Below, piece by piece: positions 2,318 through 26,701 of a stretch of DNA of 32,113 nt. The stretch comes from a virus (taxonomy: Duplodnaviria; Heunggongvirae; Uroviricota; Caudoviricetes). Below the pieces are notes generated by a model that saw nothing but the letters and a program-made list of their open reading frames with translations, did no database searches and had not been told where the DNA came from. Within the stretch, counting starts at the first letter, position 1. Every line of letters begins with the position of its first letter. The DNA lies in IMG/VR virus record IMGVR_UViG_2721755710_000003, one strand, 5' to 3'. Position numbers and translations under genes: made by a program.

Positions 2318-2673
2318 TGACAAAGATTCACAAAGTAAAGCTGCACGCAAGATATTTCAACCTTGTGCTGGAGGGAAAAGAAACGCACAGAATTTAGGGG
2401 GATAGCCGTTATCATGTGTATGAAGCACTTGAAATGTATCTGCATCACTTGGGAGTGTGTCAACGGGGAATTTCCATCTATGTGATTTTTTGAGAGCAAT
2501 GCAGTGAAGATAAAGATACTTATTATAAATCAATGTGATAGATGGTGCCTCGCAAACGTAAATGATAGTTTTGAAGCTTCAGGGCTGATGTCGTTCATAA
2601 GACTATGTTTACGCTATCATTTATGATAAAAATAATTAATTTTTATCATAAAGATTCAACAGAGGATATGTTG

Positions 2674-4179: not shown

Positions 4180-4191
4180 GATTTGTCTACA

Positions 4192-4211
4192 TCTGGACAT
4201 GGATGTCCAGA
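4192..4211. promoter_or_regulatory. Perfect 9-bp inverted repeat with 2-bp spacer (TCTGGACAT gg ATGTCCAGA) in the 69-bp gap between the two cassette genes; candidate operator
   Basis: Read directly from the sequence. It lies about 37 bp upstream of the methyltransferase ATG and just upstream of its GAGAGGGA ribosome-binding site. Confidence 0.4.
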
Positions 4212-4248
4212 AACTGATAAACTACAAAATCAGGAATGAGAGGGATTT

Positions 4249-5133
4249 ATGAAATTTTATACTCCATTAAGATACCCCGGCGGGAAAGGTAAGTTATCTT
4301 ACTTTTTAAAAGATGTTATTGAAAAAAACTCGTTGAATGATGGAGCATATGCAGAACCTTACGCTGGTGGTGCAGGGGTGGCTTTAGAATTATTATTGGA
4401 AGAGTATGTCCGTAAAATCTATATAAATGATGCAGATTTTGCTGTTTATTCTTTTTGGTCATCTGTTGTTAGTGATACTGATGAGCTTTGCCGACTTATT
4501 AGCCGAGCAAAGATAGATATGGATGAATGGTCTTTTCATCGCTATGTTATTTCGAATCCTTCTGAGTTTACTAAGCTTGAGGTTGGCTTTGCTGCGTTTT
4601 TCTTAAATAGAACAAATCGTTCAGGTATTCTCAAGGCGGGGGTTATAGGCGGGAAATCACAAAATGGAAAATGGAAAATGGATGTTCGCTTTAACAGGGC
4701 GGATTTAATTTCAAGAATTGAGAAGATAGCAAATTATAATCAAAGAATAGTAGTAACTAATCTGGATGCTTTGGATTTTCTTGATGCCTTGAATTTTATG
4801 GATAATATGGGAAAGGTGGATAAAAATAAAATTCTTTTGTATTTGGATCCTCCTTACTATATTAAAGGGCAAGGGCTTTACAGGAATTTTTATGAGCATG
4901 ATGACCATGTATTGGTTATGAAGAAACTCACAGAAATTAATTTCCCAAATTGGCTTGTTTCTTATGATAACGCTAAGGAAATTAAAGATATTTATAATGG
5001 ATTTCCGCAAGTTGAGTATTCATTGCAATATACAGCGCATCTCAAAAAATCTGGAGAGGAAGTGATGATTTTTTCTCCTGAAATAATTATTCCTAATACC
5101 CTGAAAGGGGTCTCAATGCCAACTTGCGCCTGA
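4249..5133 (+). CDS. Dam-family (D12 class) N6-adenine DNA methyltransferase, 294 aa
   Basis: Motifs align with E. coli Dam as I recall it: PLRYPGGKGK (Dam LKWAGGK), EPYAGGAGV (Dam EPFVGAGSV), FFLNRTNRSG (Dam FLYLNRYGYNG) and the catalytic LYLDPPYY (DPPY). The gene is AT-rich with a GAGAGGGA ribosome-binding site. Confidence 0.8.
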   Translation: MKFYTPLRYPGGKGKLSYFLKDVIEKNSLNDGAYAEPYAGGAGVALELLLEEYVRKIYINDADFAVYSFWSSVVSDTDELCRLISRAKIDMDEWSFHRYVISNPSEFTKLEVGFAAFFLNRTNRSGILKAGVIGGKSQNGKWKMDVRFNRADLISRIEKIANYNQRIVVTNLDALDFLDALNFMDNMGKVDKNKILLYLDPPYYIKGQGLYRNFYEHDDHVLVMKKLTEINFPNWLVSYDNAKEIKDIYNGFPQVEYSLQYTAHLKKSGEEVMIFSPEIIIPNTLKGVSMPTCA

Positions 5134-5280
5134 TTTTACTTATTTTTTGTCAGTAAGTAATTAGTTTGGTGCATTTATTTGCATTCATTTTTAAATGCCA
5201 GTTCTGGTATCTAACATCAGTGCTGGCGCATTCTAACCATTACTGCTGCACTGCATTTAAAGCCCTGCATGAAGCGGGCG

Positions 5281-6501: not shown

Positions 6502-8273
6502 CAGTAAAACTCCAGAATGGTGGATGTCAGCGGGGTGCTGATACCGGCGGTGAGTGGCTCATTTAACAGGGCGTGCATGGTCGCCCAGGCGAGGTCGGCG
6601 TGGCTGGCTTCCTCGCTGCGGCTGGCCTCATAGGTGGCGCTGCGTCCGCTGCTGGTCATGGTCTTGCGGATAGCCATAAACGAGCTGGTGATGTCGGTGG
6701 CGCTGACGTCGTATTCCAGACAGCCACGGCGGATAACGTCTTTTGCCTTGAGCACCATTGCGGTTTTCATTTCCGGCGTGTAGCGGATATCACGCGCGGC
6801 GGGATAGAACGAGCGCACGAGCTGGAACACGCCGACACCGAGGCCGGTGGCATCAATACCGATGTATTCGACGTTGTATCTTTCGGTGAGTTTGCGGATG
6901 GATTCCGCCTGGGTGGCAAAGTCCATGCCTTTCCACTGGTGACGCTCAAGTATTCTGAATTTGCCACCGGCCACCACCGGCGGTGCCAGTACCACGCATC
7001 CGGCGCTGTCGCCACGGTGTGACGGGTCGTAACCAATCCATACCGGGCGGGAGCCGAACGGATTGGCGGCAAACGGCGCATAGTCTTCCCATTCTTCCAG
7101 CGTGTCGACCATGCAGCGTTGCAGCTCCTCGAACGGGAACACCGATGCCTTGTCGTCAACAAATTCACACATGAACAGGTTTTTAAAATCGTCGGCGCTG
7201 TTTTCGCGTTTGAGCTGCTCAATGTCGAACAGCGTGCAGCCGCCTTTCAGGGCGTCCTCAATGGTGACAATCTGTCGCCACTGGCCGTCCGCACAGAGAA
7301 GCCCACCGGCAAGGGCGTTATGACTGACGTCGATTTCCACGCGTTCGGCGGCGCTGGCGCGTCCCCGGTTAAACAGTTCACCCGACCAGAACGGGTAGGC
7401 GTCGTGCGCCAGCGTGGACGGGGTGGAGAAATAGGTCGAGCGCAGGTGACTCTGTGAGGCCATACCTGATGCCACCTTACGCAGTACCTGAAAATTCGGG
7501 ATCCAGAAAATCTCATCGACGTACAGGTCGCCGTTATGACTCTGCGCGGTGTTGGAGTTGGTGCCGAGAAAAATCAGTTTTGCGCCGTTATTGCCCAGGA
7601 CAATCGGGTCACCGGTCAGGTCAACGTCAACCAGACGGGCAAAGGCGATGATGTATTCGCGGAACACATACGCCTGCGTTTTACTGGCCGACAGAAAAAT
7701 CTGGTTATGACCGGTTTTCAGGGCACGCAGCAGCGCCTCGCGGGAAAAATAAAACGTCGCGCCAATCTGGCGGGATTTCAGGATATCGCGGATGCGGTGC
7801 TCAAGCCCGGCACGATACCAGTGCAGCTGATAGTCGAAAGACTGCTCAAAGAAAATCTGCTCCAGCTTTTCGATGGCCTCGTCACTGAAAAAATTCTTTT
7901 TCGGTTTGCGCCGTCCGCCTTTGTTACGGTTAGCGACGTTCGGATTAAGGTCTGCCTCGTTGCCGGTCTGGCTGTAGCGGTTGACCCGTGCCAGTCGTTC
8001 AATCTGGCGTCCCAGCAGGTCAATTTCCTTGAAGTCACCGCCGGTTTTCTGTGGTTTGATGATGAGCTGGGTCAGCCGCGCTTCCAGACTCATTTCGACA
8101 CGGCTGATGGGGGCAACGCTGTCCCAGCCGTCGCGCTGTTTCCAGCTCTGCACTGTCGGGCGTTTCATCTGCAACATGGCGGCAATCTGCGGCACGGAAA
8201 ACCCCTGCCAGTACAGCAGCGCCGCCTGACGACGCGGGTCGTGTAAAAGAGTGGTGTCTGTGGTGATGGTCAT
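6501..8273 (-). CDS. P: Terminase large subunit (ATPase/endonuclease) GpP, 590 aa
   Basis: The ORF is open from 8303, but the P2-like protein starts at MTITTDTTLLHDPRR, giving 6501..8273. Gene order and size match P2 GpP. Confidence 0.92.
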   Translation of the reverse strand: MTITTDTTLLHDPRRQAALLYWQGFSVPQIAAMLQMKRPTVQSWKQRDGWDSVAPISRVEMSLEARLTQLIIKPQKTGGDFKEIDLLGRQIERLARVNRYSQTGNEADLNPNVANRNKGGRRKPKKNFFSDEAIEKLEQIFFEQSFDYQLHWYRAGLEHRIRDILKSRQIGATFYFSREALLRALKTGHNQIFLSASKTQAYVFREYIIAFARLVDVDLTGDPIVLGNNGAKLIFLGTNSNTAQSHNGDLYVDEIFWIPNFQVLRKVASGMASQSHLRSTYFSTPSTLAHDAYPFWSGELFNRGRASAAERVEIDVSHNALAGGLLCADGQWRQIVTIEDALKGGCTLFDIEQLKRENSADDFKNLFMCEFVDDKASVFPFEELQRCMVDTLEEWEDYAPFAANPFGSRPVWIGYDPSHRGDSAGCVVLAPPVVAGGKFRILERHQWKGMDFATQAESIRKLTERYNVEYIGIDATGLGVGVFQLVRSFYPAARDIRYTPEMKTAMVLKAKDVIRRGCLEYDVSATDITSSFMAIRKTMTSSGRSATYEASRSEEASHADLAWATMHALLNEPLTAGISTPLTSTILEFY

Positions 8274-10648: not shown

Positions 10649-10733
10649 TGCGTATTACCGTGAAGGAGATCGGTGAGTAACATCGATGGAGATCGGTTCG
10701 TGTCACTTTCACAGAACCGTTTTTAAATTACCT

Positions 10734-11483
10734 TCACTGATCTCCTTCGGTCAACGGAGATTGTATTTTCCGCATTGATTCTCCTTTAAGTTCGATCTTG
10801 ATACTGCCATGAACCAGTCGATCTAGGATGGCATCCGCATGTGTGGAGTCTCCGATCATTTTGTACCAGTTTTCCACCGGCAACTGGCTCACTACGATGA
10901 TTGAGCCTCGTTGGTACATCAGATCCACTATTTCCAGCAGGTCGCTACGCTGTTCTGATGAGAGAGGTTCCAGCCCCCAGTCATCCAGAAGCAGCAGATC
11001 GCTATTATTCAGCCTGGTCAAAAGTTTGCTGTATCTTCCATCAGCATGCCCCTGATAGCACTGTTCCATCAGCGCTTTAAGGCGATAATAGTAGACCTTG
11101 TATCCCTGTCGGCAGGCATTATGACCAAGTGCACATGCCAGGAACGTTTTACCGCTGCCGGTGGCCCCGGTCAGTAAAATATTTTGTTTCAGGGTTAACC
11201 AGTTTCCCTGACTGAGTGAACGGATGAGGGCCCTGTCCAGCCCTCTATTGTTACGATAATCCAGCTTTGATAACTCAGCATTAAGTCTGAACCGTGCATG
11301 TTTGATCAGACGCTCTGCCTTCCTGTTTTCACGGCAGGTTAGTTCTTCTGCTGTCAGTAATGACAGGCGTTCTTCGAAGCCCAGCTCCTGGTATGTGCCC
11401 GGCTGAGCAAGTTGCTTTTTAAGCGCATCACGGAAGCCGGTGAGTTTAAGTGCGGTCAGTTGTTCGTAAAGATGATTCATCAT
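10734..11483 (-). CDS. istB: IS21-family ATP-binding helper protein IstB, 249 aa
   Basis: Walker A LLTGATGSGKTFLACALG and Walker B LLLLDDWG, in the IstB/DnaC-like architecture, immediately downstream of istA. Confidence 0.88.
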   Translation of the reverse strand: MMNHLYEQLTALKLTGFRDALKKQLAQPGTYQELGFEERLSLLTAEELTCRENRKAERLIKHARFRLNAELSKLDYRNNRGLDRALIRSLSQGNWLTLKQNILLTGATGSGKTFLACALGHNACRQGYKVYYYRLKALMEQCYQGHADGRYSKLLTRLNNSDLLLLDDWGLEPLSSEQRSDLLEIVDLMYQRGSIIVVSQLPVENWYKMIGDSTHADAILDRLVHGSIKIELKGESMRKIQSPLTEGDQ

Positions 11484-11494
11484 TGGATCCCGTA

Positions 11495-13036
11495 TCAGTG
11501 GTAATACTCACTGCCGCGTACGTTTTCGTGTTCCATCGTGGATAACAGATCTGGTTTTGGATCCTGAACAGGTTGTTTATCCAGACCTTTTTCCAGGATC
11601 GATTTAATACCTGACAGACGCCATACCTTTGTTTTCAGAGCTCTTGCACATGCTGCATTAAGTCTGGCTTTACTGTATTTTTTATGAAGGTTCAGGAGTC
11701 CAAGGCAGAAGCGATAGCTTTGTTCCGGATGTGGACGAGAGTTCAGTATATGAAGCACATAACTATGAGTTTCACTGCCTATGTGCCCCGCCCATTCCAG
11801 AAGACGCTCTGGCGTCCAGGTGGCATGCTGTCGATGAGCTTCAGGCATGTGCTCGTTGCGGGTACTGTAGCCATAAGTACGCTTGCGCGGGTGCACAGCA
11901 ACCTCCTGCCCCTGATTGAAGAGTCTTACCAGTTCTCCGGAGATCCATGCTTCCAGTTGCTGGCCTAACAGCGAACATGGAACCGAGTAGTAATGTTTGT
12001 CGATTTCCACGTGGTAATCGGCATGAACTCTGACTTTCTTCACCAGGGTGTAACTGTAACTGGCTTCAGGAAGAGGCTTCAGTGCGGGTTTATCAAGCTG
12101 GATGAAGAGTTCTGCACGTGAATAACCCAACTTCTGCATTATTTTGTTATTCAGTCTTTCCAGCAACTCCCGAATGCGCTGATTAAGCGATGCAAGGCTG
12201 TAGAAGATCTCATGCCTGATTCGGGCCATGATCCAGCGTTCAACAACCTGAACGCCAACTTCAGCTTTGGCTTTATCTTTCGGTTTACGTGGCCGCGCAG
12301 GCAAAACTGCGACATTATAATGCTCAAGCATCTGCTGGTAGGTAGGGTTAACGTCAGGATCATACTTACATGCCCTGGATGTGGCGCTTTTCAGATTGTC
12401 CGGAACAACAAGTTCAGGAACGCCACCCAACCACTGGAAGCAGCGAACATGACTCATCACCCAGTCTTCAAGCTGCTGAGACCAGGTGGCCTCTGCCCAT
12501 GTGTAACTTGATGCCCCGAGAACAGCTACGATGACCTGAGCAGTTCTTATTTCTCCGGTCTCAGGGTCGGTAACGCCAACGGTAGGTCCACAGTAATCAA
12601 CGAAAAGTTTTTCGCCAGCTTTATGTACCTGACGCATTGATGGTGAAGTGGTTTTGAGCCATTCACGGTACATCCGGCAGTAATGGTTATAGCTGTAAAA
12701 ACCGCCTGGATTACGCTCACAGTATTCTTCCCAGAGTAGCTGCAGCGTCACGCATTTATTACGCAGTTCCCGGTGTACTGTAGCCCAGTCAGGCAGAGAG
12801 TGCTTCTTCATCTTAACCTGGGTCTGAAGGAACGCATGTTTTAGTTTTGTATCATCCCATCCTGTAGGTAAGGGCCACTGCTTTATGCCAAGTTGAGCCG
12901 CCCGATTAGCATATCTGGATACAACGGAAGGGGAGATTGCAAGACTACGACCAATTTGTCGATGGCTGAGTCCAACACCGTATTTAAGCCTAAGAATTTC
13001 TTTAAGTTTTCTCATAGAAATTGGAACTGTTGGCAT
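11495..13036 (-). CDS. istA: IS21-family transposase IstA (N-terminal HTH, DDE catalytic domain), 513 aa
   Basis: N-terminal HTH region (LSHRQIGRSLAISPSVVSRY), size and pairing with istB. I cannot name the specific IS by eye. Confidence 0.85.
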   Translation of the reverse strand: MPTVPISMRKLKEILRLKYGVGLSHRQIGRSLAISPSVVSRYANRAAQLGIKQWPLPTGWDDTKLKHAFLQTQVKMKKHSLPDWATVHRELRNKCVTLQLLWEEYCERNPGGFYSYNHYCRMYREWLKTTSPSMRQVHKAGEKLFVDYCGPTVGVTDPETGEIRTAQVIVAVLGASSYTWAEATWSQQLEDWVMSHVRCFQWLGGVPELVVPDNLKSATSRACKYDPDVNPTYQQMLEHYNVAVLPARPRKPKDKAKAEVGVQVVERWIMARIRHEIFYSLASLNQRIRELLERLNNKIMQKLGYSRAELFIQLDKPALKPLPEASYSYTLVKKVRVHADYHVEIDKHYYSVPCSLLGQQLEAWISGELVRLFNQGQEVAVHPRKRTYGYSTRNEHMPEAHRQHATWTPERLLEWAGHIGSETHSYVLHILNSRPHPEQSYRFCLGLLNLHKKYSKARLNAACARALKTKVWRLSGIKSILEKGLDKQPVQDPKPDLLSTMEHENVRGSEYYH

Positions 13037-13229
13037 AGGTATCCTTTACCGGAATGGCAAAAGATACAGATCAACACACCTGTGAAGTTCCAATAACATT
13101 GATGGAGATCACTGAATAACAAAATGAGTCAAAAGTGATCTCCATCGATGTTATTCAGCGATCTGTTCAAATGTTATTACCCGATCTCGATGGAAGTTAT
13201 TGAGTGATCTCCTTTCATGAAAATACGCA

Positions 13230-16788: not shown

Positions 16789-17233
16789 GTTTAAGCGTTT
16801 TGAAGACCGGCTGACCGGACTGATTGAATCGCTGTCACCGTCAGGGCGTCGGCGACTGAGTGCCGAACTGGCGAAACGTCTGCGGCAGAGTCAGCAGCGT
16901 CGGGTGATGGCACAGAAAGCCCCGGACGGCACACCCTACGCGCCACGCCAGCAGCAGAGCGTCAGAAAAAAGACCGGTCGCGTTAAGCGAAAAATGTTTG
17001 CGAAACTTATTACCAGTCGTTTTTTGCATATCCGTGCCAGCCCGGAGCAGGCATCAATGGAATTTTACGGCGGGAAGTCGCCGAAAATCGCCAGTGTGCA
17101 TCAGTTTGGTCTGTCGGAAGAAAACCGGAAAGACGGTAAGAAAATTGATTATCCGGCGCGTCCCCTGCTCGGCTTTACCGGTGAGGATGTGCAGATGATT
17201 GAAGAGATTATCCTGGCTCACCTTGAGCGTTAG
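16781..17233 (+). CDS. S: Tail completion protein GpS, 150 aa
   Basis: Size and position as in P2. Confidence 0.9.
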   Translation: MNEFKRFEDRLTGLIESLSPSGRRRLSAELAKRLRQSQQRRVMAQKAPDGTPYAPRQQQSVRKKTGRVKRKMFAKLITSRFLHIRASPEQASMEFYGGKSPKIASVHQFGLSEENRKDGKKIDYPARPLLGFTGEDVQMIEEIILAHLER

Positions 17234-17262
17234 TTTTATCCAGGCAGAGGCTGATGCGCAAT

Positions 17263-17299
17263 TAAACATTGAGCGGCCATGCTGGTCGCTCAATGTTTA
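17263..17299. terminator. 13-bp perfect-stem hairpin (TAAACATTGAGCG / CGCTCAATGTTTA, 11-nt loop) between convergent S and the orf30-position gene; candidate bidirectional terminator
   Basis: Inverted repeat read directly from the sequence. There is no strong U-tract on either strand, so the function is uncertain. Confidence 0.45.
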
Positions 17300-17304
17300 G
17301 AGGT

Positions 17305-18090
17305 TTATGAGTGATTTTTATTTGATGCTTTGTATTCTAAAACCTTCTTATTGGCGTAAAAGAATTTTGTATATGACAGGAATATAACCAGACCTGAAGT
17401 GAAATAGACGAGGGATAGTATTAATAATGCTTTTTTGTGACTGTTATTATCTTTAATCTCCTGGCTTAACCATTCGGAGTCCTCCTCGTTTAGCTGTAAG
17501 AGCTTATTGCAGGCGATCTCAGGAAGTGTGTCTTTTATAAATACGTTTTGCAGTCTCTTGCAATCGGCAAGGCTATAAGTTTTATTAAATTCAACTGCTT
17601 TATTTTTGAAGGATAAAAGAACTTTGTCACTATAAACATAGTACATCATGTTTTTATATGGTATGCCTGTGGCATCCCTTACTATAACGGATTGTTCGTT
17701 GTGTATGTAACATGCGAGGAGAATGTAAAAAATACTGGCCAGAATTACAATTATTGTTTTAATTATGTGTGGTGGTTTTGTTATGTCACCCCAGATACGA
17801 GTAAGGAAAAAATACGATGTTTTTAGTTTTCCATCAATCAGTCCCTGCTGTATCATTCTCACATTTTCAATGCCTGATACATTGATTCCGTTAATTATTT
17901 TAAATAGTTGAATATCGCGCCACTCGCGGTCAAGTCTTTTTAATTTTTTGTCTGAATATCCAAAATTGAAATAATGTGCAATAAGCCTCATAAGGTTACT
18001 TTTACCAAAGCTAAAAAATGCTAATACTGCAAAGCTACAAAGGAAAAAAACGATTAGCCCCCACACATTAGTCACATTATAGCTGACCAT
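17305..18090 (-). CDS. AT-rich hypothetical membrane protein with three predicted transmembrane helices, 261 aa, antisense to the late operons at the S/V junction (P2 orf30 position)
   Basis: Hydrophobic stretches GLIVFFLCSFAVLAFFSF, IIKTIIVILASIFYILLACYI and ALLILSLVYFTSGLVIFLSY. A strong ribosome-binding site (AAGGAGAG) lies 4 nt upstream of the ATG on the minus strand. Confidence 0.7.
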   Translation of the reverse strand: MVSYNVTNVWGLIVFFLCSFAVLAFFSFGKSNLMRLIAHYFNFGYSDKKLKRLDREWRDIQLFKIINGINVSGIENVRMIQQGLIDGKLKTSYFFLTRIWGDITKPPHIIKTIIVILASIFYILLACYIHNEQSVIVRDATGIPYKNMMYYVYSDKVLLSFKNKAVEFNKTYSLADCKRLQNVFIKDTLPEIACNKLLQLNEEDSEWLSQEIKDNNSHKKALLILSLVYFTSGLVIFLSYTKFFYANKKVLEYKASNKNHS

Positions 18091-18105
18091 TACGCTCTCC
18101 TTGAA

Positions 18106-18125
18106 TGTTGTCTGGTAGTTCTACA
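18106..18125 (+). promoter_or_regulatory. Candidate Ogr-dependent late promoter element for the V operon (TGTTGTCTGGTAGTTCTACA; imperfect TGT...ACA dyad)
   Basis: Partial dyad about 50-70 bp upstream of the V start, where an activator-dependent late promoter is expected. Spacing is N11 or N14 rather than a perfect N12. Confidence 0.4.
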
Positions 18126-18173
18126 AATGAATCCAGATAGCATAACTTTTATATATTGTGCAATCTCACATGC

Positions 18174-18809
18174 ATGAACACTCTCGCAAATATTCAGGAA
18201 CTCGCGCGCGCACTGCGCAACATGATTCGCACTGGCATTATCGTCGAAACCGACCTTAACGCCGGTCGCTGCCGCGTGCAGACCGGCGGCATGTGCACCG
18301 ACTGGCTTCAGTGGCTGACCCATCGCGCAGGACGTTCGCGCACATGGTGGGCACCTTCCGTGGGGGAACAGGTGCTGATTCTGGCCGTGGGTGGTGAACT
18401 CGACACGGCGTTCGTTCTGCCGGGGATTTATTCCGGCGATAACCCCTCGCCGTCTGTGTCGGCGGATGCCCTGCATATCCGTTTCCCTGACGGGGCGGTG
18501 ATTGAATATGAACCCGAAACCAGTGCACTCACGGTAAGCGGAATTAAAACGGCCAGCGTGACGGCTTCTGATTCTGTTACTGCCACGGTGCCGGTGGTCA
18601 TGGTGAAAGCATCAACCCGCGTCACCCTGGACACCCCGGAGGTGGTCTGCACCAACAGGCTGATTACCGGCACGCTGGAAGTGCAGAAAGGCGGGACGAT
18701 GCGCGGCAACATTGAACACACCGGCGGTGAACTCTCATCAAACGGTAAGGTACTGCATACCCATAAACACCCCGGCGACAGCGGCGGCACAACCGGGAGT
18801 CCTTTATGA
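18174..18809 (+). CDS. V: Baseplate spike protein GpV, 211 aa
   Basis: Translation from MNTLANIQELARALRNM; size and position as in P2. Confidence 0.9.
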   Translation: MNTLANIQELARALRNMIRTGIIVETDLNAGRCRVQTGGMCTDWLQWLTHRAGRSRTWWAPSVGEQVLILAVGGELDTAFVLPGIYSGDNPSPSVSADALHIRFPDGAVIEYEPETSALTVSGIKTASVTASDSVTATVPVVMVKASTRVTLDTPEVVCTNRLITGTLEVQKGGTMRGNIEHTGGELSSNGKVLHTHKHPGDSGGTTGSPL

Positions 18810-19153
18810 CAGCGCGTTATCTCGGAATGAATCGCAGTGATGGCCTGACTGTCACTGACCTTGAGCATATCAGCCAGAGTATCGGCGATATCCTGCGCAC
18901 ACCGGTCGGCTCACGGGTGATGCGTCGTGATTACGGCTCGTTGCTGGCGTCAATGATTGACCAGCCGCAGACCCCGGCGCTTGAGTTGCAGATTAAAGTC
19001 GCCTGTTACATGGCAGTGCTGAAATGGGAACCCCGCGTCACCCTGTCATCCGTCACCACGGCGCGCAGTTTTGACGGGCGAATGACGGTCACGTTAACCG
19101 GCCAGCACAACGACACCGGCCAGCCACTTTCATTAACCATCCCTGTGAGTTGA
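18806..19153 (+). CDS. W: Baseplate protein GpW (gp25-like), 115 aa
   Basis: Size and position as in P2. Confidence 0.9.
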   Translation: MTARYLGMNRSDGLTVTDLEHISQSIGDILRTPVGSRVMRRDYGSLLASMIDQPQTPALELQIKVACYMAVLKWEPRVTLSSVTTARSFDGRMTVTLTGQHNDTGQPLSLTIPVS

Positions 19154-19157
19154 AACC

Positions 19158-20066
19158 ATGCCGATTATCGACCTGAACCAGCTACCCGCACCGGATGTGG
19201 TCGAGGAGCTGGACTTTGAAAGCATTCTCGCTGAACGCAAGGCGACACTGATTTCCCTTTACCCGGAAGATCAGCAGGAGGCGGTCGCCCGTACCCTGAC
19301 ACTGGAATCTGAGCCTCTCGTCAAACTGCTGGAAGAAAATGCTTATCGTGAGCTTATCTGGCGTCAGCGTGTGAATGAGGCCGCACGGGCGGTGATGCTG
19401 GCCTGTGCCGCCGGTAATGACCTTGATGTGATTGGTGCCAATTACAACACCACGCGCCTGACTATCACCCCGGCAGATGATTCGACCATGCCGCCGACAC
19501 CGGCAGTGATGGAATCTGACACCGATTATCGTCTGCGTATTCAGCAGGCTTTTGAGGGCTTAAGCGTCGCCGGGTCAGTGGGAGCCTATCAGTATCATGG
19601 TCGCAGTGCTGACGGGCGTGTCGCGGATATTTCTGTCACCAGTCCGTCTCCTGCCTGTGTCACCATCTCTGTGCTGTCACGTGAAAATAACGGCGTCGCA
19701 TCCGAAGACCTGCTGGCTGTGGTGCGTAACGCCCTTAATGGCGAGGACGTCAGGCCGGTGGCCGACCGCGTGACCGTGCAGTCTGCCGCCATCGTTGAAT
19801 ACCAGATAAACGCCACGCTTTACCTTTACCCTGGTCCCGAAAGCGAACCCATCCGCGCTGCCGCTGTGAAAAAGCTGGAAGCGTATATCACGGCACAGCA
19901 CCGGCTGGGGCGCGACATCCGTCTGTCTGCCATTTATGCCGCTTTGCATGTGGAAGGTGTGCAGCGTGTCGAACTGGCTGCACCACTGGCCGACATCGTG
20001 CTCAACAGTACGCAGGCGTCTTTCTGTACCGAATACCGCGTCGTGACCGGAGGCTCGGATGAGTGA
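19158..20066 (+). CDS. J: Baseplate protein GpJ, 302 aa
   Basis: Size and position as in P2. Confidence 0.9.
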   Translation: MPIIDLNQLPAPDVVEELDFESILAERKATLISLYPEDQQEAVARTLTLESEPLVKLLEENAYRELIWRQRVNEAARAVMLACAAGNDLDVIGANYNTTRLTITPADDSTMPPTPAVMESDTDYRLRIQQAFEGLSVAGSVGAYQYHGRSADGRVADISVTSPSPACVTISVLSRENNGVASEDLLAVVRNALNGEDVRPVADRVTVQSAAIVEYQINATLYLYPGPESEPIRAAAVKKLEAYITAQHRLGRDIRLSAIYAALHVEGVQRVELAAPLADIVLNSTQASFCTEYRVVTGGSDE

Positions 20067-20589
20067 TTCGCGACTGCTGCCGACCGGCTCATCACCGCTT
20101 GAGGTCGCCGCCGCAAAAGCCTGTGCGGAAATTGAAAAAACGCCGGTCAGTATTCGTGAACTGTGGAACCCGGACACCTGTCCGGCAAATCTGCTGCCGT
20201 GGCTGGCGTGGGCGTTTTCGGTCGACAGGTGGGATGAAAAGTGGCCGGAAGCGACAAAACGCGCCGTTATCCGCGATGCCTATTTCATCCACTGTCATAA
20301 GGGCACGATAGGTGCAATCCGGCGTGTGGTGGAGCCGCTCGGCTATCTCATCAACGTGACGGAGTGGTGGGAAAACAGTGACCCGCCCGGCACCTTCCGG
20401 CTTGATATTGGTGTACTGGAAAGCGGTATCACAGAGGCAATGTATCAGGAAATGGAACGGCTGATTGCTGATGCCAAACCTGCAAGCCGTCACCTTATTG
20501 GCCTGAACATTACCCGGGACATTCCCGGCTACCTGTTCGCCGGTGGTGTGGCTTACGACGGCGATGTAATTACGGTTTACCCCGGATAA
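20059..20589 (+). CDS. I: Baseplate protein GpI, 176 aa
   Basis: Size and position as in P2. Confidence 0.9.
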   Translation: MSDSRLLPTGSSPLEVAAAKACAEIEKTPVSIRELWNPDTCPANLLPWLAWAFSVDRWDEKWPEATKRAVIRDAYFIHCHKGTIGAIRRVVEPLGYLINVTEWWENSDPPGTFRLDIGVLESGITEAMYQEMERLIADAKPASRHLIGLNITRDIPGYLFAGGVAYDGDVITVYPG

Positions 20590-20599
20590 GTGAGGAATA

Positions 20600-22609
20600 A
20601 TGAGCACAAAATTCAAAACCGTTATCACCACTGCCGGTGCAGCAAAGCTGGCAGCGGCAACCGCACCGGGAGGGCGGAAGGTCAACATTACCACGATGGC
20701 CGTCGGGGATGGCGGTGGTAAATTGCCTGTCCCGGATGCCGGACAGACCGGGCTTATCCATGAAGTCTGGCGACATGCGCTGAACAAAATCAGCCAGGAC
20801 AAACGAAACAGTAATTATATTATCGCAGAGCTGGTTATTCCGCCGGAGGTGGGCGGTTTCTGGATGCGTGAGCTTGGCCTGTACGATGATGCGGGAACAT
20901 TAATTGCCGTGGCGAACATGGCCGAAAGTTATAAGCCAGCTCTTGCCGAAGGCTCAGGGCGTTCGCAGACCTGTCGCATGGTCATCATCGTCAGCAGTGT
21001 GGCCTCAGTGGCGCTGACCATTGACACCACAACGGTGATGGCGACGCAGGATTACGTTGATGACAAAATTGCAGAGCATGAACAGTCACGACGTCACCCG
21101 GACGCCTCGCTGACCGCAAAAGGTTTTACTCAGTTAAGCAATGCGACCAACAGCACGTCTGAAACACTGGCCGCAACGCCGAAAGCGGTAAAGGCCGCGT
21201 ATGATCTTGCTAACGGGAAATACACTGCGCAGGATGCCACCACAGCGCGAAAAGGCCTTGTCCAGCTCAGTAGCGCCACCAACAGCACGTCTGAAACGCT
21301 CGCCGCAACACCAAAAGCCGTTAAGACGGTAATGGATGAAACGAACAAAAAAGCGCCATTAAACAGCCCTGCACTGACCGGAACGCCAACGACGCCAACT
21401 GCGCGACAGGGAACGAATAATACTCAGATCGCAAACACGGCTTTCGTTATGGCCGCGATTGCCGCCCTTGTAGACTCGTCGCCTGACGCACTGAATACGC
21501 TGAACGAGCTGGCGGCGGCGCTGGGCAATGACCCGAATTTTGCTACCACCATGACTAATGCGCTTGCGGGTAAGCAACCGAAAGATGCTACCCTGACGGC
21601 GCTGGCGGGGCTTGCTACTGCGGCAGACAGGTTTCCGTATTTTACGGGGAATGATGTTGCCAGCCTGGCGACCCTGACAAAAGTCGGGCGGGATATTCTG
21701 GCTAAATCGACCGTTGCCGCCGTTATCGAATATCTCGGTTTACAGGAAACGGTAAACCGAGCCGGGAACGCCGTGCAAAAAAATGGCGATACCTTGTCCG
21801 GTGGACTTACTTTTGAAAACGACTCAATCCTTGCCTGGATTCGAAATACTGACTGGGCGAAGATTGGATTTAAAAATGATGCCGATGGTGACACTGATTC
21901 ATACATGTGGTTTGAAACGGGGGATAACGGCAATGAATATTTCAAATGGAGAAGCCGCCAGAGTACCACAACAAAAGACCTGATGACGTTGAAATGGGAT
22001 GCACTAAATATTCTTGTTAATGCCGTCATTAATGGCTGTTTTGGAGTTGGTACGACGAATGCACTAGGTGGTAGCTCTATTGTTCTTGGTGATAATGATA
22101 CCGGATTTAAACAGAATGGAGACGGTATTCTTGATGTTTATGCTAACAGTCAGCGTGTATTCCGTTTTCAGAATGGAGTGGCTATTGCTTTTAAAAATAT
22201 TCAGGCAGGTGATAGTAAAAAGTTCTCGCTATCCAGCTCTAATACATCCACGAAGAATATTACCTTTAATTTATGGGGTGCTTCCACCCGTCCAGTGGTT
22301 GCAGAGTTAGGCGATGAGGCCGGATGGCATTTCTATAGCCAGCGAAATACAGATAACTCGGTAATATTTGCTGTTAACGGTCAGATGCAACCCAGCAACT
22401 GGGGAAATTTTGATTCCCGCTATGTGAAAGATGTTCGCCTGGGTACGCGAGTTGTTCAATTGATGGCGCGAGGTGGTCGTTATGAAAAAGCCGGACACAC
22501 GATTACCGGATTAAGAATCATTGGTGAAGTAGATGGCGATGATGAAGCCATCTTCAGGCCGATACAAAAATACATCAATGGCACATGGTATAACGTTGCG
22601 CAGGTGTAA
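20600..22609 (+). CDS. H: Tail fibre protein GpH, 669 aa, with internal repeats and an AT-rich C-terminal (receptor-binding) portion
   Basis: The conserved N-terminus MSTKFKTVITTAGAAKLAAATAPGG is followed by the repeat motif QLS(N/S)ATNSTSETLAATPKAVK. Base composition drops markedly from about 21780 onward. Confidence 0.9.
   Translation: MSTKFKTVITTAGAAKLAAATAPGGRKVNITTMAVGDGGGKLPVPDAGQTGLIHEVWRHALNKISQDKRNSNYIIAELVIPPEVGGFWMRELGLYDDAGTLIAVANMAESYKPALAEGSGRSQTCRMVIIVSSVASVALTIDTTTVMATQDYVDDKIAEHEQSRRHPDASLTAKGFTQLSNATNSTSETLAATPKAVKAAYDLANGKYTAQDATTARKGLVQLSSATNSTSETLAATPKAVKTVMDETNKKAPLNSPALTGTPTTPTARQGTNNTQIANTAFVMAAIAALVDSSPDALNTLNELAAALGNDPNFATTMTNALAGKQPKDATLTALAGLATAADRFPYFTGNDVASLATLTKVGRDILAKSTVAAVIEYLGLQETVNRAGNAVQKNGDTLSGGLTFENDSILAWIRNTDWAKIGFKNDADGDTDSYMWFETGDNGNEYFKWRSRQSTTTKDLMTLKWDALNILVNAVINGCFGVGTTNALGGSSIVLGDNDTGFKQNGDGILDVYANSQRVFRFQNGVAIAFKNIQAGDSKKFSLSSSNTSTKNITFNLWGASTRPVVAELGDEAGWHFYSQRNTDNSVIFAVNGQMQPSNWGNFDSRYVKDVRLGTRVVQLMARGGRYEKAGHTITGLRIIGEVDGDDEAIFRPIQKYINGTWYNVAQV
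21131..21325 (+). repeat. Two copies of a roughly 62-nt repeat inside H, 132 bp apart (identical core ACCAACAGCACGTCTGAAAC at 21146-21165 and 21278-21297)
   Basis: Read directly from the sequence; mirrored in the spurious antisense ORF 21130..21348, which shows the same peptide twice. Confidence 0.85.
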
Positions 22610-22612
22610 GTT

Positions 22613-23140
22613 ATGCAGCATTTAAAGAACATTAAGTCAGGTAATCCAAAAACAAAAGAGCAATATCAGCTAACAAAGAATTTTGATGTTATCTGGTTAT
22701 GGTCCGAAGACGGAAAAAACTGGTATGAGGAAGTGAAGAACTTTCAGCCAGACACAATAAAGATTGTTTACGATGAAAATAATATTATTGTCGCTATCAC
22801 CAGAGATGCTTCAACGCTTAATCCTGAAGGTTTTAGCGTTGTTGAGGTTCCTGATATTACCTCCAACCGACGTGCTGACGACTCAGGTAAATGGATGTTT
22901 AAGGATGGTGCTGTGGTTAAACGGATTTATACGGCAGATGAACAGCAACAACAGGCAGAATCACAAAAGGCCGCGTTACTTTCCGAAGCGGAAAACGTTA
23001 TTCAGCCACTGGAACGCGCTGTCAGGCTGAATATGGCGACGGATGAGGAACGTGCACGACTGGAGTCATGGGAACGTTACAGCGTTCTGGTCAGCCGTGT
23101 GGATCCTGCAAATCCTGAATGGCCGGAAATGCCGCAATAA
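22613..23140 (+). CDS. G: Tail fibre assembly chaperone GpG, 175 aa
   Basis: Follows H, correct size, AT-rich like the H C-terminus. Confidence 0.85.
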
Positions 23141-23174
23141 GTTGTATGACCTCTGTTGTGAACTTACATATCTA

Positions 23175-23215
23175 TGGCACAGAGTAAAGCCTAATCTGAA
23201 GTCCACTCTGTGCCA
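23175..23215. repeat. 11-bp perfect inverted repeat (TGGCACAGAGT ... ACTCTGTGCCA) with a 19-nt loop between convergent G and the Z/fun-position gene
   Basis: Read directly from the sequence. It could be a terminator for either convergent transcript or a protein-binding site; there is no clear U-tract. Confidence 0.5.
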
Positions 23216-23533
23216 AAAGCGGACCTTATAAACAAGAACAATGGTCATATCAGTGTGTTTTGATTGCATAGCTAACGTGCGTCTTCCTGTACAGAATCAT
23301 AAGATGATAGGGCATAGGAGATGATTATTATCGCGTGTTTTAAAAATAGCTTTCTGCATCAAGTGTCACTTGCGAAGAGGTATTGGCGCTATGATTGGCA
23401 TCACTCAGTTCAGATAATATTTTAAATATTTGGTAAATGTTCAGATTACACAATTCGGTCTGCGTCCCGTTAAAATTATCTACTATTAGTTATTACTATG
23501 AGGTGAATGGCAAGTGTTTTCCACTCGCCATTT

Positions 23534-25120
23534 TTATTTTTTTAAAGCCTTTCCGACGTTTAAGGCTTTTGCCAAGCCATAAAATATTTGATATTTCATT
23601 CCTGTTTTTATTTTTGGTGAGATATTTGCGTAACTTCTTTCTCTAAAACACCAACGTATAAACCTATTATTATCTTCGGTTGTTTCTATATAGCATATTA
23701 CATTGAGACCAAAAAGAAACTGAAGGAAGTCATTTGCAGTTGTCATGAATTTTGGTTTTGTTGTGGAAATGGAACTAATATGAGTTTCAAGTTGTTTATA
23801 TGCTAAGAGGTATTCAGCGTAATCAAAAGTATCTTTTCCAGAGAGGAATTCAAAGAACTTTAAAAAAATCTCATAATGTTCACTTCCATAATAAAATGAT
23901 AAATGATCTTTTATTTCTCCAAGTAAATAGTTAGAGTAATCTCTTTGCATGCTAGGACTTTCAAAGTCATCTAGACTAAATTGATTTTTCCCATCATCAC
24001 CGCTGGCGTGTGATTTGATAATTTCGAGCATCCGTAATATATCTCTTGGGCGATAATATGACCAGCGAAGGAAATTAATAAATGATGTGGGGTGGTTATA
24101 ATTATCATGGACGTTGGGTGAATCCCAAGGGAAATAATGGTCCCATGCCTGTCCCTTTTTAAGGGCCATGTCTTGCTGAGTCCTAAGCAGATGATCTAAT
24201 ACCTCAAATAATTGAGAGCTACGGTGGTTAACATATTCTGTCCGCCAGTCCAAGAATACTGAATTATCTCTGATTTTTGCGTTTTGATTTTGTAATCCTA
24301 TGGATTCAAATATATCTGGCCTGATCAAGAGAACGGCCTTCATTCTCCCTTTTCCTCCCTTTATACTTGGGAAGAAATCGTTGTTAATCTCCCAGACTGC
24401 GTGAGCTAATCCTTTTATACATTCTAGATAATCATCGTATGGAATTGAGGAAGGGCGGATATCAATACCATCGATAAATAAAATATGATTTTGAGATAAA
24501 CGTATTTGGCTAAAGGCCTCTTCAAATTTTTTTTGTATATAAAATAAATTTATCTGAAATCTGCTCTCAGAAAAAGATAAAGACTCTCTTTCTTCACCTT
24601 TTAAGGTTGCATGCTTATGAAGTAGTTCGGCTGCAACTTTTGACTCTTGAACAAAACTGAGGGCTTGAATTATTTCTGGTGAAAATGCCTTAAGATAATA
24701 CTCATCTATTGCATCATTAAGTGATGAGAATTTTGAATAATTTAGTAACTTTGAAATTTTCCCTTCTTTATCTAATACTTGTTTTGATATTAATAAATAT
24801 AGAATAACTTTCCATATGCCAGAGAAGTCAGACAAATTTAAATGCTTTTCAGATTTAAGAGTGATAAATTTTTGATATTCTGTCTCTCTTATATATTTAG
24901 TTGTAGCTAGCGTATTGTTAATATTGTTATTTGAGAGATAGATAGAGTATGCGGTTTTACCAGTACCTTTCTCTCCTACAAGAAACGATATATTTGGTTC
25001 ACATAATCTAGATAGGTGATTATCACGTATGAACACTTTGTTAAGTAATTCTTTATTCTCCCTTCTCTTATAATTTTCAGCATCAGCATAGCCAAGAGTT
25101 AGATCTTTGATTGGTATCAT
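23534..25120 (-). CDS. AT-rich P-loop NTPase (Walker A GEKGTGKT, Walker B-like ILFIDGID), 528 aa, antisense to the tail genes in the Z/fun position
   Basis: N-terminal motifs FLVGEKGTGKTAYSIYL and HILFIDGIDIRP. A GAGGT ribosome-binding site precedes the ATG on the minus strand. The roughly 300-aa C-terminal region has no motif I can recognise by eye. Confidence 0.7.
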   Translation of the reverse strand: MIPIKDLTLGYADAENYKRRENKELLNKVFIRDNHLSRLCEPNISFLVGEKGTGKTAYSIYLSNNNINNTLATTKYIRETEYQKFITLKSEKHLNLSDFSGIWKVILYLLISKQVLDKEGKISKLLNYSKFSSLNDAIDEYYLKAFSPEIIQALSFVQESKVAAELLHKHATLKGEERESLSFSESRFQINLFYIQKKFEEAFSQIRLSQNHILFIDGIDIRPSSIPYDDYLECIKGLAHAVWEINNDFFPSIKGGKGRMKAVLLIRPDIFESIGLQNQNAKIRDNSVFLDWRTEYVNHRSSQLFEVLDHLLRTQQDMALKKGQAWDHYFPWDSPNVHDNYNHPTSFINFLRWSYYRPRDILRMLEIIKSHASGDDGKNQFSLDDFESPSMQRDYSNYLLGEIKDHLSFYYGSEHYEIFLKFFEFLSGKDTFDYAEYLLAYKQLETHISSISTTKPKFMTTANDFLQFLFGLNVICYIETTEDNNRFIRWCFRERSYANISPKIKTGMKYQIFYGLAKALNVGKALKK

Positions 25121-25379
25121 TATTACCTCAACTAAAGCAATTGAAAAACATATGGTTATAAAAACATAGCGCTGCTCTGTCGCATATTGTGGATATCAAC
25201 ATATGAAATGTAAAGGAACTATTTGTGGATGAATGAACCGAATCGCTGTAGCTTCGGTAGTCATCTTTCAGACTTGTATAAATGAACAACTTCCGCTTCT
25301 CGCTCAAAGGAAACTGTCAGATTTGATAGCTTTTGGGCTATGTAAACTGTCAGTCGGAAAATGAGTGAGTACAAATCAG

Positions 25380-25510
25380 GGCAGGTGAGCGAATTGCCCG
25401 CCTTTTCTTTACCGGTGGTTGTGCTGTCGATTAGCCAACCGGGACAAATAGCCTGACATCTCCGGCGCAACTGAAAATACCACTCACCCATTAACCACGG
25501 AGTTAAACGG
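25380..25510 (+). promoter_or_regulatory. Expected position of the late promoter for the FI-FII-E-T-U-D operon
   Basis: Position only: intergenic region upstream of FI. No convincing dyad found by eye. Confidence 0.3.
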
Positions 25511-26701
25511 ATGAGTGACTATCATCACGGCGTGCAGGTGCTGGAGATTAACGAGGGCACCCGCGTCATTTCCACCGTATCCACGGCCATTGTCGGCATG
25601 GTCTGCACGGCCAGCGATGCAGATGCGGAAACCTTCCCCCTCAATAAACCTGTGCTGATTACCAATGTGCAGAGCGCAATTTCAAAGGCCGGTAAAAAAG
25701 GCACGCTGGCGGCATCGTTGCAGGCCATCGCTGACCAGTCAAAACCGGTCACCGTTGTCGTGCGCGTGGAAGACGGCACCGGTGATGACGAGGAAACGAA
25801 ACTCGCGCAGACCGTTTCCAATATCATCGGCACCACCGATGAAAACGGTCAGTACACCGGACTAAAAGCCCTGCTGGCGGCGGAGTCGGTAACCGGTGTT
25901 AAACCGCGTATTCTCGGCGTGCCGGGACTGGATACCAAAGAGGTGGCTGTTGCACTGGCATCAGTCTGTCAGAAGCTGCGTGCTTTCGGGTATATCAGCG
26001 CATGGGGCTGTAAAACCATTTCCGAGGTGAAAGCCTATCGTCAGAATTTCAGCCAGCGTGAGCTGATGGTCATCTGGCCGGATTTCCTCGCATGGGATAC
26101 GGTCACCAGTACCACCGCCACCGCGTATGCCACCGCCCGTGCGCTGGGGCTGCGCGCTAAAATCGACCAGGAGCAGGGCTGGCATAAAACGCTGTCCAAT
26201 GTCGGGGTGAACGGTGTTACCGGCATCAGCGCATCTGTATTCTGGGATTTGCAGGAGTCCGGCACCGATGCTGACCTGCTTAACGAGTCAGGCGTCACTA
26301 CGCTGATTCGCCGCGACGGTTTCCGCTTCTGGGGTAACCGTACCTGCTCTGATGACCCGCTGTTCCTCTTTGAAAACTACACCCGCACCGCGCAGGTGCT
26401 GGCCGACACGATGGCTGAGGCGCACATGTGGGCGGTGGACAAGCCCATCACTGCAACGCTGATTCGCGACATCGTTGACGGCATCAATGCCAAATTCCGT
26501 GAGCTGAAAACAAACGGCTATATCGTGGATGCGACCTGCTGGTTCAGCGAAGAATCCAACGATGCGGAAACCCTCAAGGCCGGAAAACTGTATATCGACT
26601 ACGACTATACACCGGTGCCTCCTCTCGAAAACCTGACCCTGCGCCAGCGTATTACCGATAAATACCTGGCAAATCTGGTCACCTCGGTTAACAGCAATTA
26701 A
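25511..26701 (+). CDS. FI: Tail sheath protein GpFI, 396 aa
   Basis: Size and position as in P2. Confidence 0.92.
   Translation: MSDYHHGVQVLEINEGTRVISTVSTAIVGMVCTASDADAETFPLNKPVLITNVQSAISKAGKKGTLAASLQAIADQSKPVTVVVRVEDGTGDDEETKLAQTVSNIIGTTDENGQYTGLKALLAAESVTGVKPRILGVPGLDTKEVAVALASVCQKLRAFGYISAWGCKTISEVKAYRQNFSQRELMVIWPDFLAWDTVTSTTATAYATARALGLRAKIDQEQGWHKTLSNVGVNGVTGISASVFWDLQESGTDADLLNESGVTTLIRRDGFRFWGNRTCSDDPLFLFENYTRTAQVLADTMAEAHMWAVDKPITATLIRDIVDGINAKFRELKTNGYIVDATCWFSEESNDAETLKAGKLYIDYDYTPVPPLENLTLRQRITDKYLANLVTSVNSN

Follow-up and report, generated by a model that had tools for sequence, protein, structure and literature searches.

The tail fibre region of this DNA raises the question whether its two genes were inherited as one unit or assembled from parts, and, in the latter case, where the parts are joined. 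The window, i.e. the whole analysed stretch of 32,113 nucleotides, is 99.1–99.6% identical to phage P2, which identifies it as a P2-type prophage. We are highly confident that the region comprises the tail fibre gene H and the fibre-assembly chaperone gene G of such a prophage, and that it is modular and exchanged by recombination. The two genes are:

20600–22609, + strand: gene H, an intact open reading frame for a tail fibre protein of 669 aa, 99% identical to P2 H (AF063097 12734–14743)
22613–23140, + strand: gene G, an open reading frame for a tail fibre assembly chaperone of 175 aa, with a PF02413 domain and a match to Mu U

The chaperone gene lies directly 3' of its own fibre gene, with the H stop codon ending at 22609 and the G reading frame beginning at 22613. 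The upstream ORF (20059–20589) is Tail_P2_I (PF09684, E = 6e-56), so that H follows immediately on gene I for the baseplate wedge. The genes are arranged as in the annotated P2 record, with H and G at their positions in the V-W-J-I-H-G operon. In P2, gpH is the virion tail fibre protein and binds an LPS core receptor (PMC9594776); a passage of the same article, citing Haggård-Ljungquist et al. 1992, describes P2 fibre fusions that formed naturally by horizontal transfer.

The original prediction had named uniform base composition and colinear identity of the region with a single reference phage as results that would count against a mosaic. Colinear identity was found (99.1% to P2), whereas the composition was not uniform. 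However, this identity only shows that the window is P2, and the P2 H-G region is itself the mosaic. Swapping of this host-recognition module between unrelated phages is already known and has been a textbook case since 1992; our analysis adds nothing fundamental, as P2 H-G is the founding example of fibre exchange between unrelated phages. We take the article by Haggård-Ljungquist, Halling and Calendar of 1992 (J Bacteriol 174:1462) to deal with P2 genes H and G.

The beginning of H belongs to the P2 family:

20600–21052, + strand: N-terminal domain, aa 1–151, P2-family backbone with a GC content of 0.56 (Pfam PF12571, Phage_tail_fib, E = 4.1e-58)

Of 5426 complete E. coli genomes, 635 contain this domain, every time on the chromosome. 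Neither Mu S nor P1 S has anything that corresponds to the first 169 aa of H. Judged by domain family and gene position, aa 1–151 presumably serve as the baseplate attachment. Base composition changes far downstream of this domain. A single maximum-likelihood change point, calculated over 20059–23140, falls at 21777 (support interval 21690–21860), where the GC content drops, from left to right, from 0.556 to 0.432; its 2dLL is 47, while 200 permutations reached at most 24. The predicted backbone-like N-terminal third of H is thus backbone-like in composition, but the extent of one third was too short, as this composition reaches over the first 56% of the gene. Likewise, the predicted shift to AT-rich sequence at about 21780 was recovered, but it does not last through the whole of G, which is AT-rich only in its N-terminal half (GC 0.354, compared to 0.505 in the C-terminal half).

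Around the change point and to its right the region resembles the fibre genes of unrelated phages:

21741–22036, + strand: proximal, conserved portion of the distal fibre that is exchanged, aa 381–479, in which the AT-rich composition begins (88% DNA identity to Mu, 87% to P1)
22037–22554, + strand: most variable distal part, aa 480–652, presumed receptor-binding tip
22555–22609, + strand: conserved C-terminal peptide of H, ...RPIQKYINGTWYNVAQV, where right-hand homology resumes
23141–23234, + strand: brief conserved sequence following G, which closes the module on the right and abuts the variable fun(Z) cargo site

At the DNA level, distal H together with G is 87–88% identical to S-U of Mu, P1 and D108. 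Across 21741–23140 (1400 nt) the sequence agrees at 94% with one arm, S-U, of the segment that is invertible in a P1-like phage-plasmid of type IncY; there the cassette lies between cix sites with a recombinase gene adjoining. The view that distal H and G are probably an exchanged cassette of receptor-binding domain and chaperone, already put forward in the original prediction, is supported by this identity of 87–94% to S-U of Mu, P1, D108 and IncY. At the protein level H aa 373–479 are 90% identical to Mu S aa 167–270 and 88% identical to P1 S aa 654–756, and the structure of Mu S (PDB 5yvq_A) matches H aa 375–669. No blastp match was obtained in Mu S or P1 S for aa 480–601. The tip occurs at 88–99% identity in P2-type, Xuanwuvirus, Citrobacter and 39–49 kb Yersinia phages and at 93–97% in plasmids, one of which was inspected and is IncY; in the 5426 E. 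coli genomes it is present in 206, and 52 of its places are on plasmids. A 36-nt stretch (22076–22111) matches T-even genes for the distal subunit of the long tail fibre with 97% identity. Aa 480–652 presumably bind the receptor. The final 14–18 aa of H are near-invariant over the distal types.

G carries the Caudo_TAP domain (PF02413, aa 40–175, E = 5e-38), matches Mu U (PDB 5yvq_B) over its full length (residues 1–175, E = 2e-107) and shares 92–97% of its amino acids with U of Mu and P1. Among relatives its N-terminal half (22613–22849) is 66–91% identical and its C-terminal half (22850–23140) 81–98%. This half-wise divergence fits the modularity of Tfa proteins, as described in a passage of PMC9608196 citing North et al. 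2019. The block covering G ends at 23212–23234 in relatives and matches to phages end at 23212–23230. A scan after G detected no consensus terminator; P2 has one annotated at the equivalent of 23505–23532.

Within the part of H to the left of the change point we found the repeats that the original prediction had placed there, exactly as described, with two copies of a 21-aa motif and identical 20-nt cores 132 bp apart:

21116–21379, + strand: two fibre shaft repeat units of 44 aa (132 nt) in tandem, with direct repeat and exact cores (Pfam PF03406)

The core ACCAACAGCACGTCTGAAAC occurs twice in the whole window, at 21146–21165 and 21278–21297, and 100 shuffles gave no match of this kind. Taken alone, an exact 20-nt core is statistically unremarkable for two copies coding for the same peptide. 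The cores lie in a 76-nt direct repeat (21118–21193 and 21250–21325) with 78% identity and the same 132-nt spacing, and the motif QLS[N/S]ATNSTSETLAATPKAVK is identical in 20 of 21 residues between the copies. Both copies belong to Phage_fiber_2, the "phage tail fibre repeat" (PF03406, two stretches, E = 4.7e-38), and a 132-bp repeated element, a1, is annotated in P1 gene S. Relatives contain one to five units, always spaced by 44 aa. The number is related to the distal type, with two units in every P2-type case and four in most others, and given this correlation part of the repeat array may travel with the cassette.

The use of the repeats as junctions was assessed in 80 relatives with a near-identical H N-terminal domain, which carry at least 14 different distal ends. 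Colinearity with the window is lost at 21324–21327, the end of repeat 2, in 70 of the 80, and at 22024–22036 in three. On the right-hand side, 43 relatives regain homology at 22555 and 12 at 22412. Among P2-like relatives the repeat (~21325), and not the GC shift at ~21780, is the boundary in most frequent use. Copy numbers from one to five were seen among relatives that are 97–99% identical upstream, and the one-unit variants L077 and L078 are shorter by exactly one 132-nt unit. When relatives of equal copy number are considered, many junctions lie 50–860 nt past the repeat array. Over all relatives, many breaks at the repeat partly reflect unequal array lengths. The count of 56 out of 57 junctions at a repeat-unit end in pairs with unequal copy numbers, being partly forced by array length, was set aside as independent evidence.

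The ancestry of this prophage holds one such crossover:

21269–21318, + strand: interval of a homologous crossover inside repeat unit 2 (last difference to P2 at 21268; L035 and L066 first differ at 21319)

In comparison to P2, gene H has 23 SNPs and 7 amino acid changes in 2010 nt, all within 20607–21268, while the DNA is identical to P2 across 21269–23529 and the G protein is identical to P2 G. We compared mismatches between the window and relatives from 20600 onward. L035 and L066, whose distal ends are of other types, share every base of 20736–21318 with the window and show the first difference at 21319. Over 20600–21325 the nearest relatives (4–7 mismatches) bear different distal types, whereas relatives with the P2-type distal part differ at 15–23 sites. 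Since the N-terminal patch matches relatives with other distal ends, this prophage has recombined within H when compared to the reference P2. The prediction that the repeats are plausible recombination substrates gained support from the 70 breaks, the range of copy numbers and this crossover: the sequence comparisons support that the repeats act as recombination junctions and that a crossover in the ancestry of the window probably maps inside repeat 2. We infer homologous recombination as the mechanism of these exchanges.

A second and older junction, separate from the repeat boundary, is indicated by the GC shift and lies at a sequence resembling an invertase crossover site:

21326–21722, + strand: shaft segment with a GC content of 0.578, resembling the terminal stretch of Sc, the constant part of P1 gene S
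21723–21748, + strand: degenerate invertase crossover site (pseudo-gix/cix), TTATCGAATATC TC GGTTTACAGGAA, coding for part of VIEYLGLQE

H aa 258–372 are 77% identical to P1 S aa 333–447, and the DNA at 21350–21742 agrees at 69–70% with Sc of P1 and IncY as far as their cix site. Most of the 80 relatives gave no blastn match in 21326–21722. The gix-like site matches Mu gixL TTATCCAAAACCTCGGTTTACAGGAA (L002 1509–1534) in 23 of 26 bases, with the central TC and the entire right half-site intact and three mismatches in the left half-site; the boundary of the Mu G segment is annotated at L002 1521, in the central TC of gixL. At up to 6 mismatches the site is unique in the 32-kb window. Similarity to P1 Sc extends up to 21742 and similarity to Mu/P1 Sv begins at 21716–21741, so that both blocks meet on the 26-bp site. 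In L095 and L128 another distal end is joined at the same point, next to a U-like chaperone (83%). An assignment of this cassette to the Mu/P1 S' type was rejected, as only the first ~20 residues past the site resemble S'; beyond these residues the DNA did not closely match Sv' of Mu or P1. The published P2-P1(S') chimera which works best, with U' supplied, joins H aa 370 to P1 S aa 446 (PMC9942202), and this fusion point falls 5 residues before the gix-like site.

This arrangement could mean that the cassette was captured, and maybe is still exchanged, site-specifically by a Din-family invertase (Gin, Cin or Pin) at the pseudo-gix. The meeting of Sc-like and Sv-like blocks on the site, its intact TC and right half-site, the other distal end joined there in L095 and L128 and the location of the same cassette between cix sites beside a recombinase gene in the IncY phage-plasmid all point in this direction, and PMC8986868 contains a passage according to which Sandmeier (1994) reported sequences like invertase sites at the ends of host-specificity fibre segments. 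Still, we consider such a capture unlikely. The left half-site is degenerate by three mismatches, no second site was present in the window or, within the DNA fetched, in any of the 46 loci carrying the first, and the H-G neighbourhood contains no invertase gene, fun(Z) and then FI following after G. Wild-type invertases are known to require two sites in cis and an enhancer. Moreover, the ~300 nt conserved to the right of the site are sufficient for homologous exchange. The composition shift itself might reflect the amino acid or structural needs of fibre tips instead of a foreign origin, as all 14 distal types on the same N-terminal domain are AT-richer (GC 0.44–0.49) than the N-terminal part (0.55–0.56) and the GC2 of G is low (0.352). 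We regard this as highly improbable: GC3 also falls past the change point, from ~0.60 to 0.37–0.45, the shift starts within a block that is 88–94% DNA-identical to unrelated phages, and the GC content of the cassette is 0.436–0.446 in all four carriers.

More credit is due to the possibility that the repeats are purely structural and set the fibre length, their DNA similarity being a by-product of coding for the same peptide and recombination incidental. PF03406 is a widespread protein repeat family found also in Mu S and P1 S, whole 132-nt units are only 58% identical, and across 183 distinct units third positions vary freely at many codons of the conserved part. Nevertheless we find this doubtful as the full explanation, given that the crossover maps within unit 2, that L077 and L078 lack exactly one unit and that copy number varies among relatives nearly identical upstream; a structural role would also be compatible with junction use. 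Codons 11–16 and codon 20 show low third-position diversity (e.g. TCT in 179 of 183 units, GCA in 179 of 181), which is suggestive but confounded by shared ancestry. In the third-codon-position entropy of the 183 distinct units, selection on this core is inseparable from shared ancestry or gene conversion. Based on these near-invariant synonymous sites one could go further and regard the core as a DNA-level, family-wide adaptor for in-frame swapping, with the pseudo-gix in addition usable by co-resident P1, Mu or e14 invertases. We hold this to be very unlikely; if the pseudo-gix were usable, a P2 prophage could capture Sv-U cassettes site-specifically from phage-plasmids.

Our preferred reading remains modular exchange by recombination. 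H consists of the P2-family N-terminal domain (aa 1–151), a shaft beginning with tandem 44-aa repeats, the P1-Sc-like segment and a distal part with the presumed tip, and G is a Tfa-type chaperone travelling with distal H. According to literature on the Mu homologue, the variable N-terminal half of G may bind the fibre and the conserved C-terminal half may trimerise. We infer the functional roles of the H and G domains. Host range would change when distal H and G are replaced jointly through a few recurrent in-frame junctions, namely the repeat units (~21193 and ~21325), the gix-like site with the conserved block beyond it (21723–22036), and the conserved H C-terminus with G and the stretch just past G (22555–23234). 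The cassette would stem from an AT-richer pool (GC ~0.44) common to Mu, P1 and P1-like plasmids, where it appears as one arm of an invertible segment, while in the window it is fixed. The H-G module decides which bacteria are bound by a P2-type phage or by a P4 or P2-based delivery particle, and the engineering of chimeric fibres can usefully be guided by the natural junctions and by the rule that distal part and chaperone move jointly.

Compared to known systems, the region is closest to P2 H-G (AF063097 12734–15274), with the same genes, the same lengths of 669 and 175 aa and the same order after V-W-J-I, and differs from it by the substitutions confined to the first 669 nt of H. The Sv and U genes of the Mu G segment (Gin), the P1 C segment (Cin) and IncY are homologous to distal H and G (87–94% DNA identity, 88–97% protein identity except for tip residues 480–601), with a gix-like sequence at the equivalent position and the chaperone directly after the fibre gene. 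In P1-type S, cix and the shared block are ~600 nt further apart. Two inverted crossover sites, as in the Mu G, P1 C, e14 P and p15B Min segments, were not found, nor was any long inverted repeat in H-G; no serine invertase gene adjoins G, which is followed by fun(Z) (no Pfam match) and FI; and the minus strand of 22613–25120 contains no opposite Sv'-U' gene set, its only such ORF being fun(Z). With one degenerate site, no inverted second cassette and no invertase, the cassette is thus fixed in the window. Among Tfa chaperones (Caudo_TAP; Mu U, PDB 5YVQ; lambda Tfa), G agrees in domain, homology to Mu U and variable N-terminal half, and no difference to them was found. Motif-mediated adhesin swapping was reportedly described for T-even gp37/gp38 by Tétart et al. 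in 1996 and 1998. The motifs and fibre architecture of that system are unlike those of H, but it likewise uses short conserved motifs within fibre genes as in-frame recombination points.

In a megablast search with 20000–23700, bacteriophage P2 (AF063097) matched the query over its full length (100%) with an identity of 99.1%, and the annotated P2 genes under this match were J, I, H, G and fun(Z). The whole window aligned to P2 in three blocks:

332–2395: P2 28334–30396
5281–10648: P2 1–5368
13230–32113: P2 5364–24254 (99.6%)

The window is thus a P2-type prophage, covered from within gene A to ogr. Among complete E. coli genomes a 100% match in one piece across the IS junction was found solely in strain elppa10 (NZ_CP083478). 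The module of the tail fibre gene H and the gene G of its Tfa-type assembly chaperone is an already known object. A mosaic H-G region of P2, with kinship to the fibre genes of Mu, P1, lambda and T-even phages, was reportedly described by Haggård-Ljungquist, Halling and Calendar in 1992.

Further genes of the window are the following:

2605–4179: PD-Lambda-5 protein A, 524 aa (PADLOC E 1.7e-167)
4249–5133: PD-Lambda-5 D12-class N6-adenine methyltransferase (E 1.4e-121)
10734–11483, minus strand: IstB of an IS21-family element
11495–13036, minus strand: IstA of the IS21-family element
17305–18090, minus strand: orf30, 261 aa
23534–25120, minus strand: fun(Z), 528 aa, with a GEKGTGKT P-loop-like motif

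The IS21-family element (10649–13229; ISEc12 family in RefSeq) sits in the terminase small-subunit gene M, and the P2 matches flanking it share 5 bp (P2 5364–5368), as a target-site duplication would give. This prophage is probably unable to package DNA. An IS1 insA gene (1–276, minus strand, Pfam InsA domains) adjoins the 5'-truncated replication gene A (338–2317, 659 aa; 2286 nt in the P2 annotation), and the window lacks the early region with int, C, cox and B, which lies upstream of A. The two-gene PD-Lambda-5 defence system takes up 2396–5280 in place of the P2 orf91-tin-old cargo. Both fun(Z), which blocks phage T5 according to the P2 annotation, and orf30 are very AT-rich minus-strand cargo genes (GC 0.26–0.41) with no match in Pfam or PADLOC. 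Near the 3' end of fun(Z), a 7-nt deletion relative to P2 (TTTTTGT, at 23530) falls at the 3' end of the annotated V-operon terminator (23505–23532) and just past it; a simple terminator scan found no terminator at 23505–23532 in the window.

The observation on H-G in the original prediction is confirmed. The 20-nt core it had reported (ACCAACAGCACGTCTGAAAC) is present exactly twice in the window, at 21146–21165 and 21278–21297, and did not turn up in any of 100 shuffles. Both copies are contained in a 76-nt direct repeat (21118–21193 and 21250–21325; 78% identity, spacing 132 nt), seen at the protein level as two tandem 44-aa units that each match Pfam Phage_fiber_2. Base composition had been described as AT-rich from about 21780 through G. 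A single maximum-likelihood change point over 20059–23140 indeed lies at 21777 (support 21690–21860), with GC 0.556 to its left and 0.432 to its right and a statistic about twice the highest value among 200 permutations; within G, however, the N-terminal half alone is AT-rich (GC 0.354, compared to 0.505 in the C-terminal half). Since GC3 also drops, from about 0.60 to 0.37–0.45, the shift reflects more than amino-acid content.

Compared with the fibre proteins S of Mu and P1, the module is composed as follows:

20600–22609: gene H, 669 aa
H aa 1–151: Phage_tail_fib domain (Pfam), absent from Mu S and P1 S
H aa 170–257: repeats, 63% identity to P1 S aa 180–258
H aa 258–372: segment like the end of the P1 S constant part, 77% identity to P1 S aa 333–447
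H aa 373–479: 90% identity to Mu S aa 167–270, 88% to P1 S aa 654–756
H aa 480–601: no match in Mu S or P1 S
H aa 602–669: 91% identity to the C-terminus of P1 S
22613–23140: gene G, 175 aa

Both halves of G are 92–97% identical to the chaperones Mu U and P1 U. The solved structure of the Mu S-U complex (5YVQ) is matched by H aa 375–669 in chain A and by G in chain B (E 2e-107).

At the DNA level, homology to the constant part of P1 S (Sc; 69–70%) stops at 21742, and homology to the variable part of Mu and P1 S (Sv; 87–88%) begins at 21716–21741. Here, at 21723–21748, TTATCGAATATC-TC-GGTTTACAGGAA matches the invertase crossover site gixL of Mu (TTATCCAAAACC-TC-GGTTTACAGGAA) in 23 of 26 positions, with neither the central dinucleotide nor the right half-site altered; the central TC of gixL is where the annotated boundary of the Mu G segment is located. 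Two P2-like relatives, L095 and L128, share the sequence of the window exactly until this gix-like site and continue with another distal end. According to PMC8986868, Sandmeier 1994 reported that sequences resembling invertase sites mark the ends of host-specificity segments. The most efficient P2-P1(S') chimera, in which H residue 370 was joined to P1 S residue 446 and U' was supplied (PMC9942202), was fused at a point five residues ahead of the natural junction at the gix-like site, and engineered swaps confirm fibre modularity.

We then compared the window with 80 IMG/VR loci whose H N-domain has a protein identity of at least 98%. The colinear match stops at 21324–21327 in 70 loci, at 22024–22036 in three and at 21193 in two, and runs on through G in five. 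The two loci stopping at 21193 have one repeat unit each, and because homology is back at 21250 they are exactly one unit shorter. Overall, 43 loci regain homology at 22555 and 12 at 22412, and otherwise it returns at 22217–22403; the right-hand homology ends at 23212–23234. One, two, three, four and five repeat units are found in 2, 10, 3, 55 and 10 loci, respectively, always spaced by 44 aa. The 80 relatives comprise at least 14 distal types (classes of distal H end at 90% protein identity), every one of them AT-richer than the N-part. As the copy number of the repeats goes with the distal type, the cassette may carry some of the array along when it moves. Types of equal copy number have many junctions beyond the array.

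Two relatives show further rearrangements. In L109 (IMGVR_UViG_2939172355_000006) a stretch that matches gene V (encoding ...GEQVLILAVGGELDTAFVLPGIYSGDNP...) runs straight into H at the equivalent of about window position 21692, some 30 nt to the left of the gix-like site; the joint implies that W, J and I were lost along with the first half of H, so that the locus looks like a decayed prophage. In L014 the G 3' end and following sequence are present a second time, at 7834–8067 (89% identity to window 22985–23217), about 1 kb beyond the G homologue of that locus; this arrangement is suggestive of an insertion or of a remnant of a duplicated chaperone.

Over 17000–26700, 33 substitutions and a single 7-nt deletion separate the window from P2. 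Twenty-three of these substitutions fall in 20607–21268, and 21269–23529 shows no differences; given 68 mismatches in the whole 18.9-kb block, the Poisson probability of this clustering is 2e-15. The nearest relatives in 20600–21325 (4–7 mismatches) have other distal types and four or five repeats, while relatives with a P2-type distal end differ there at 15–23 sites. L035 and L066 show no difference from the window over 20736–21318, and their first one is at 21319. Identity to P2 from 21269 and to these two loci up to 21318 places the exchange point within 21269–21318, in repeat unit 2 and including the 20-nt core, which directly supports the proposed role of the repeats as recombination substrates.

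Where relatives have a different distal type, identity of the G homologue is 66–91% in its N-half and 81–98% in its C-half, and the final 14–18 residues of H are near-invariant. Both patterns fit the Tfa model outlined in PMC9608196 (citing North et al. 2019), in which a variable N-domain binds the fibre and a conserved C-domain trimerises. Of 5426 complete E. coli genomes, 635 have the N-part of H, chromosomal in every case; the tip (22037–22555) is present in 206, with 52 places on plasmids, and also in Xuanwuvirus, Citrobacter phages and several 39–49 kb Yersinia phages. Within the tip, 36 nt (22076–22111, encoding about SIVLGDNDTGFK) are 97% identical to T-even phage genes for the distal subunit of the long tail fibre (QL01, NHEP29 and others), an isolated short motif in otherwise unrelated genes.

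The whole of 21741–23140 is present at 94% identity in the IncY P1-like phage-plasmid NZ_CP101271, where its counterpart serves as the S-U arm of a segment; the same segment further includes an inverted U'-Sv' set and a recombinase gene. GC of the common cassette is 0.436–0.446 in P2, Mu, P1 and the IncY plasmid, and that of the upstream fibre parts is 0.557, 0.478, 0.489 and 0.492, respectively. The interpretation in the original prediction was right in substance; the module has two distinct junctions, at the repeats and at the gix-like site, and not one. The window contains no second gix-like site and no inverted cassette or invertase adjoining H-G. Its H-G cassette therefore stands outside the invertible segments of Mu, P1 and the IncY plasmid and acts as a single fixed arm of that kind would.
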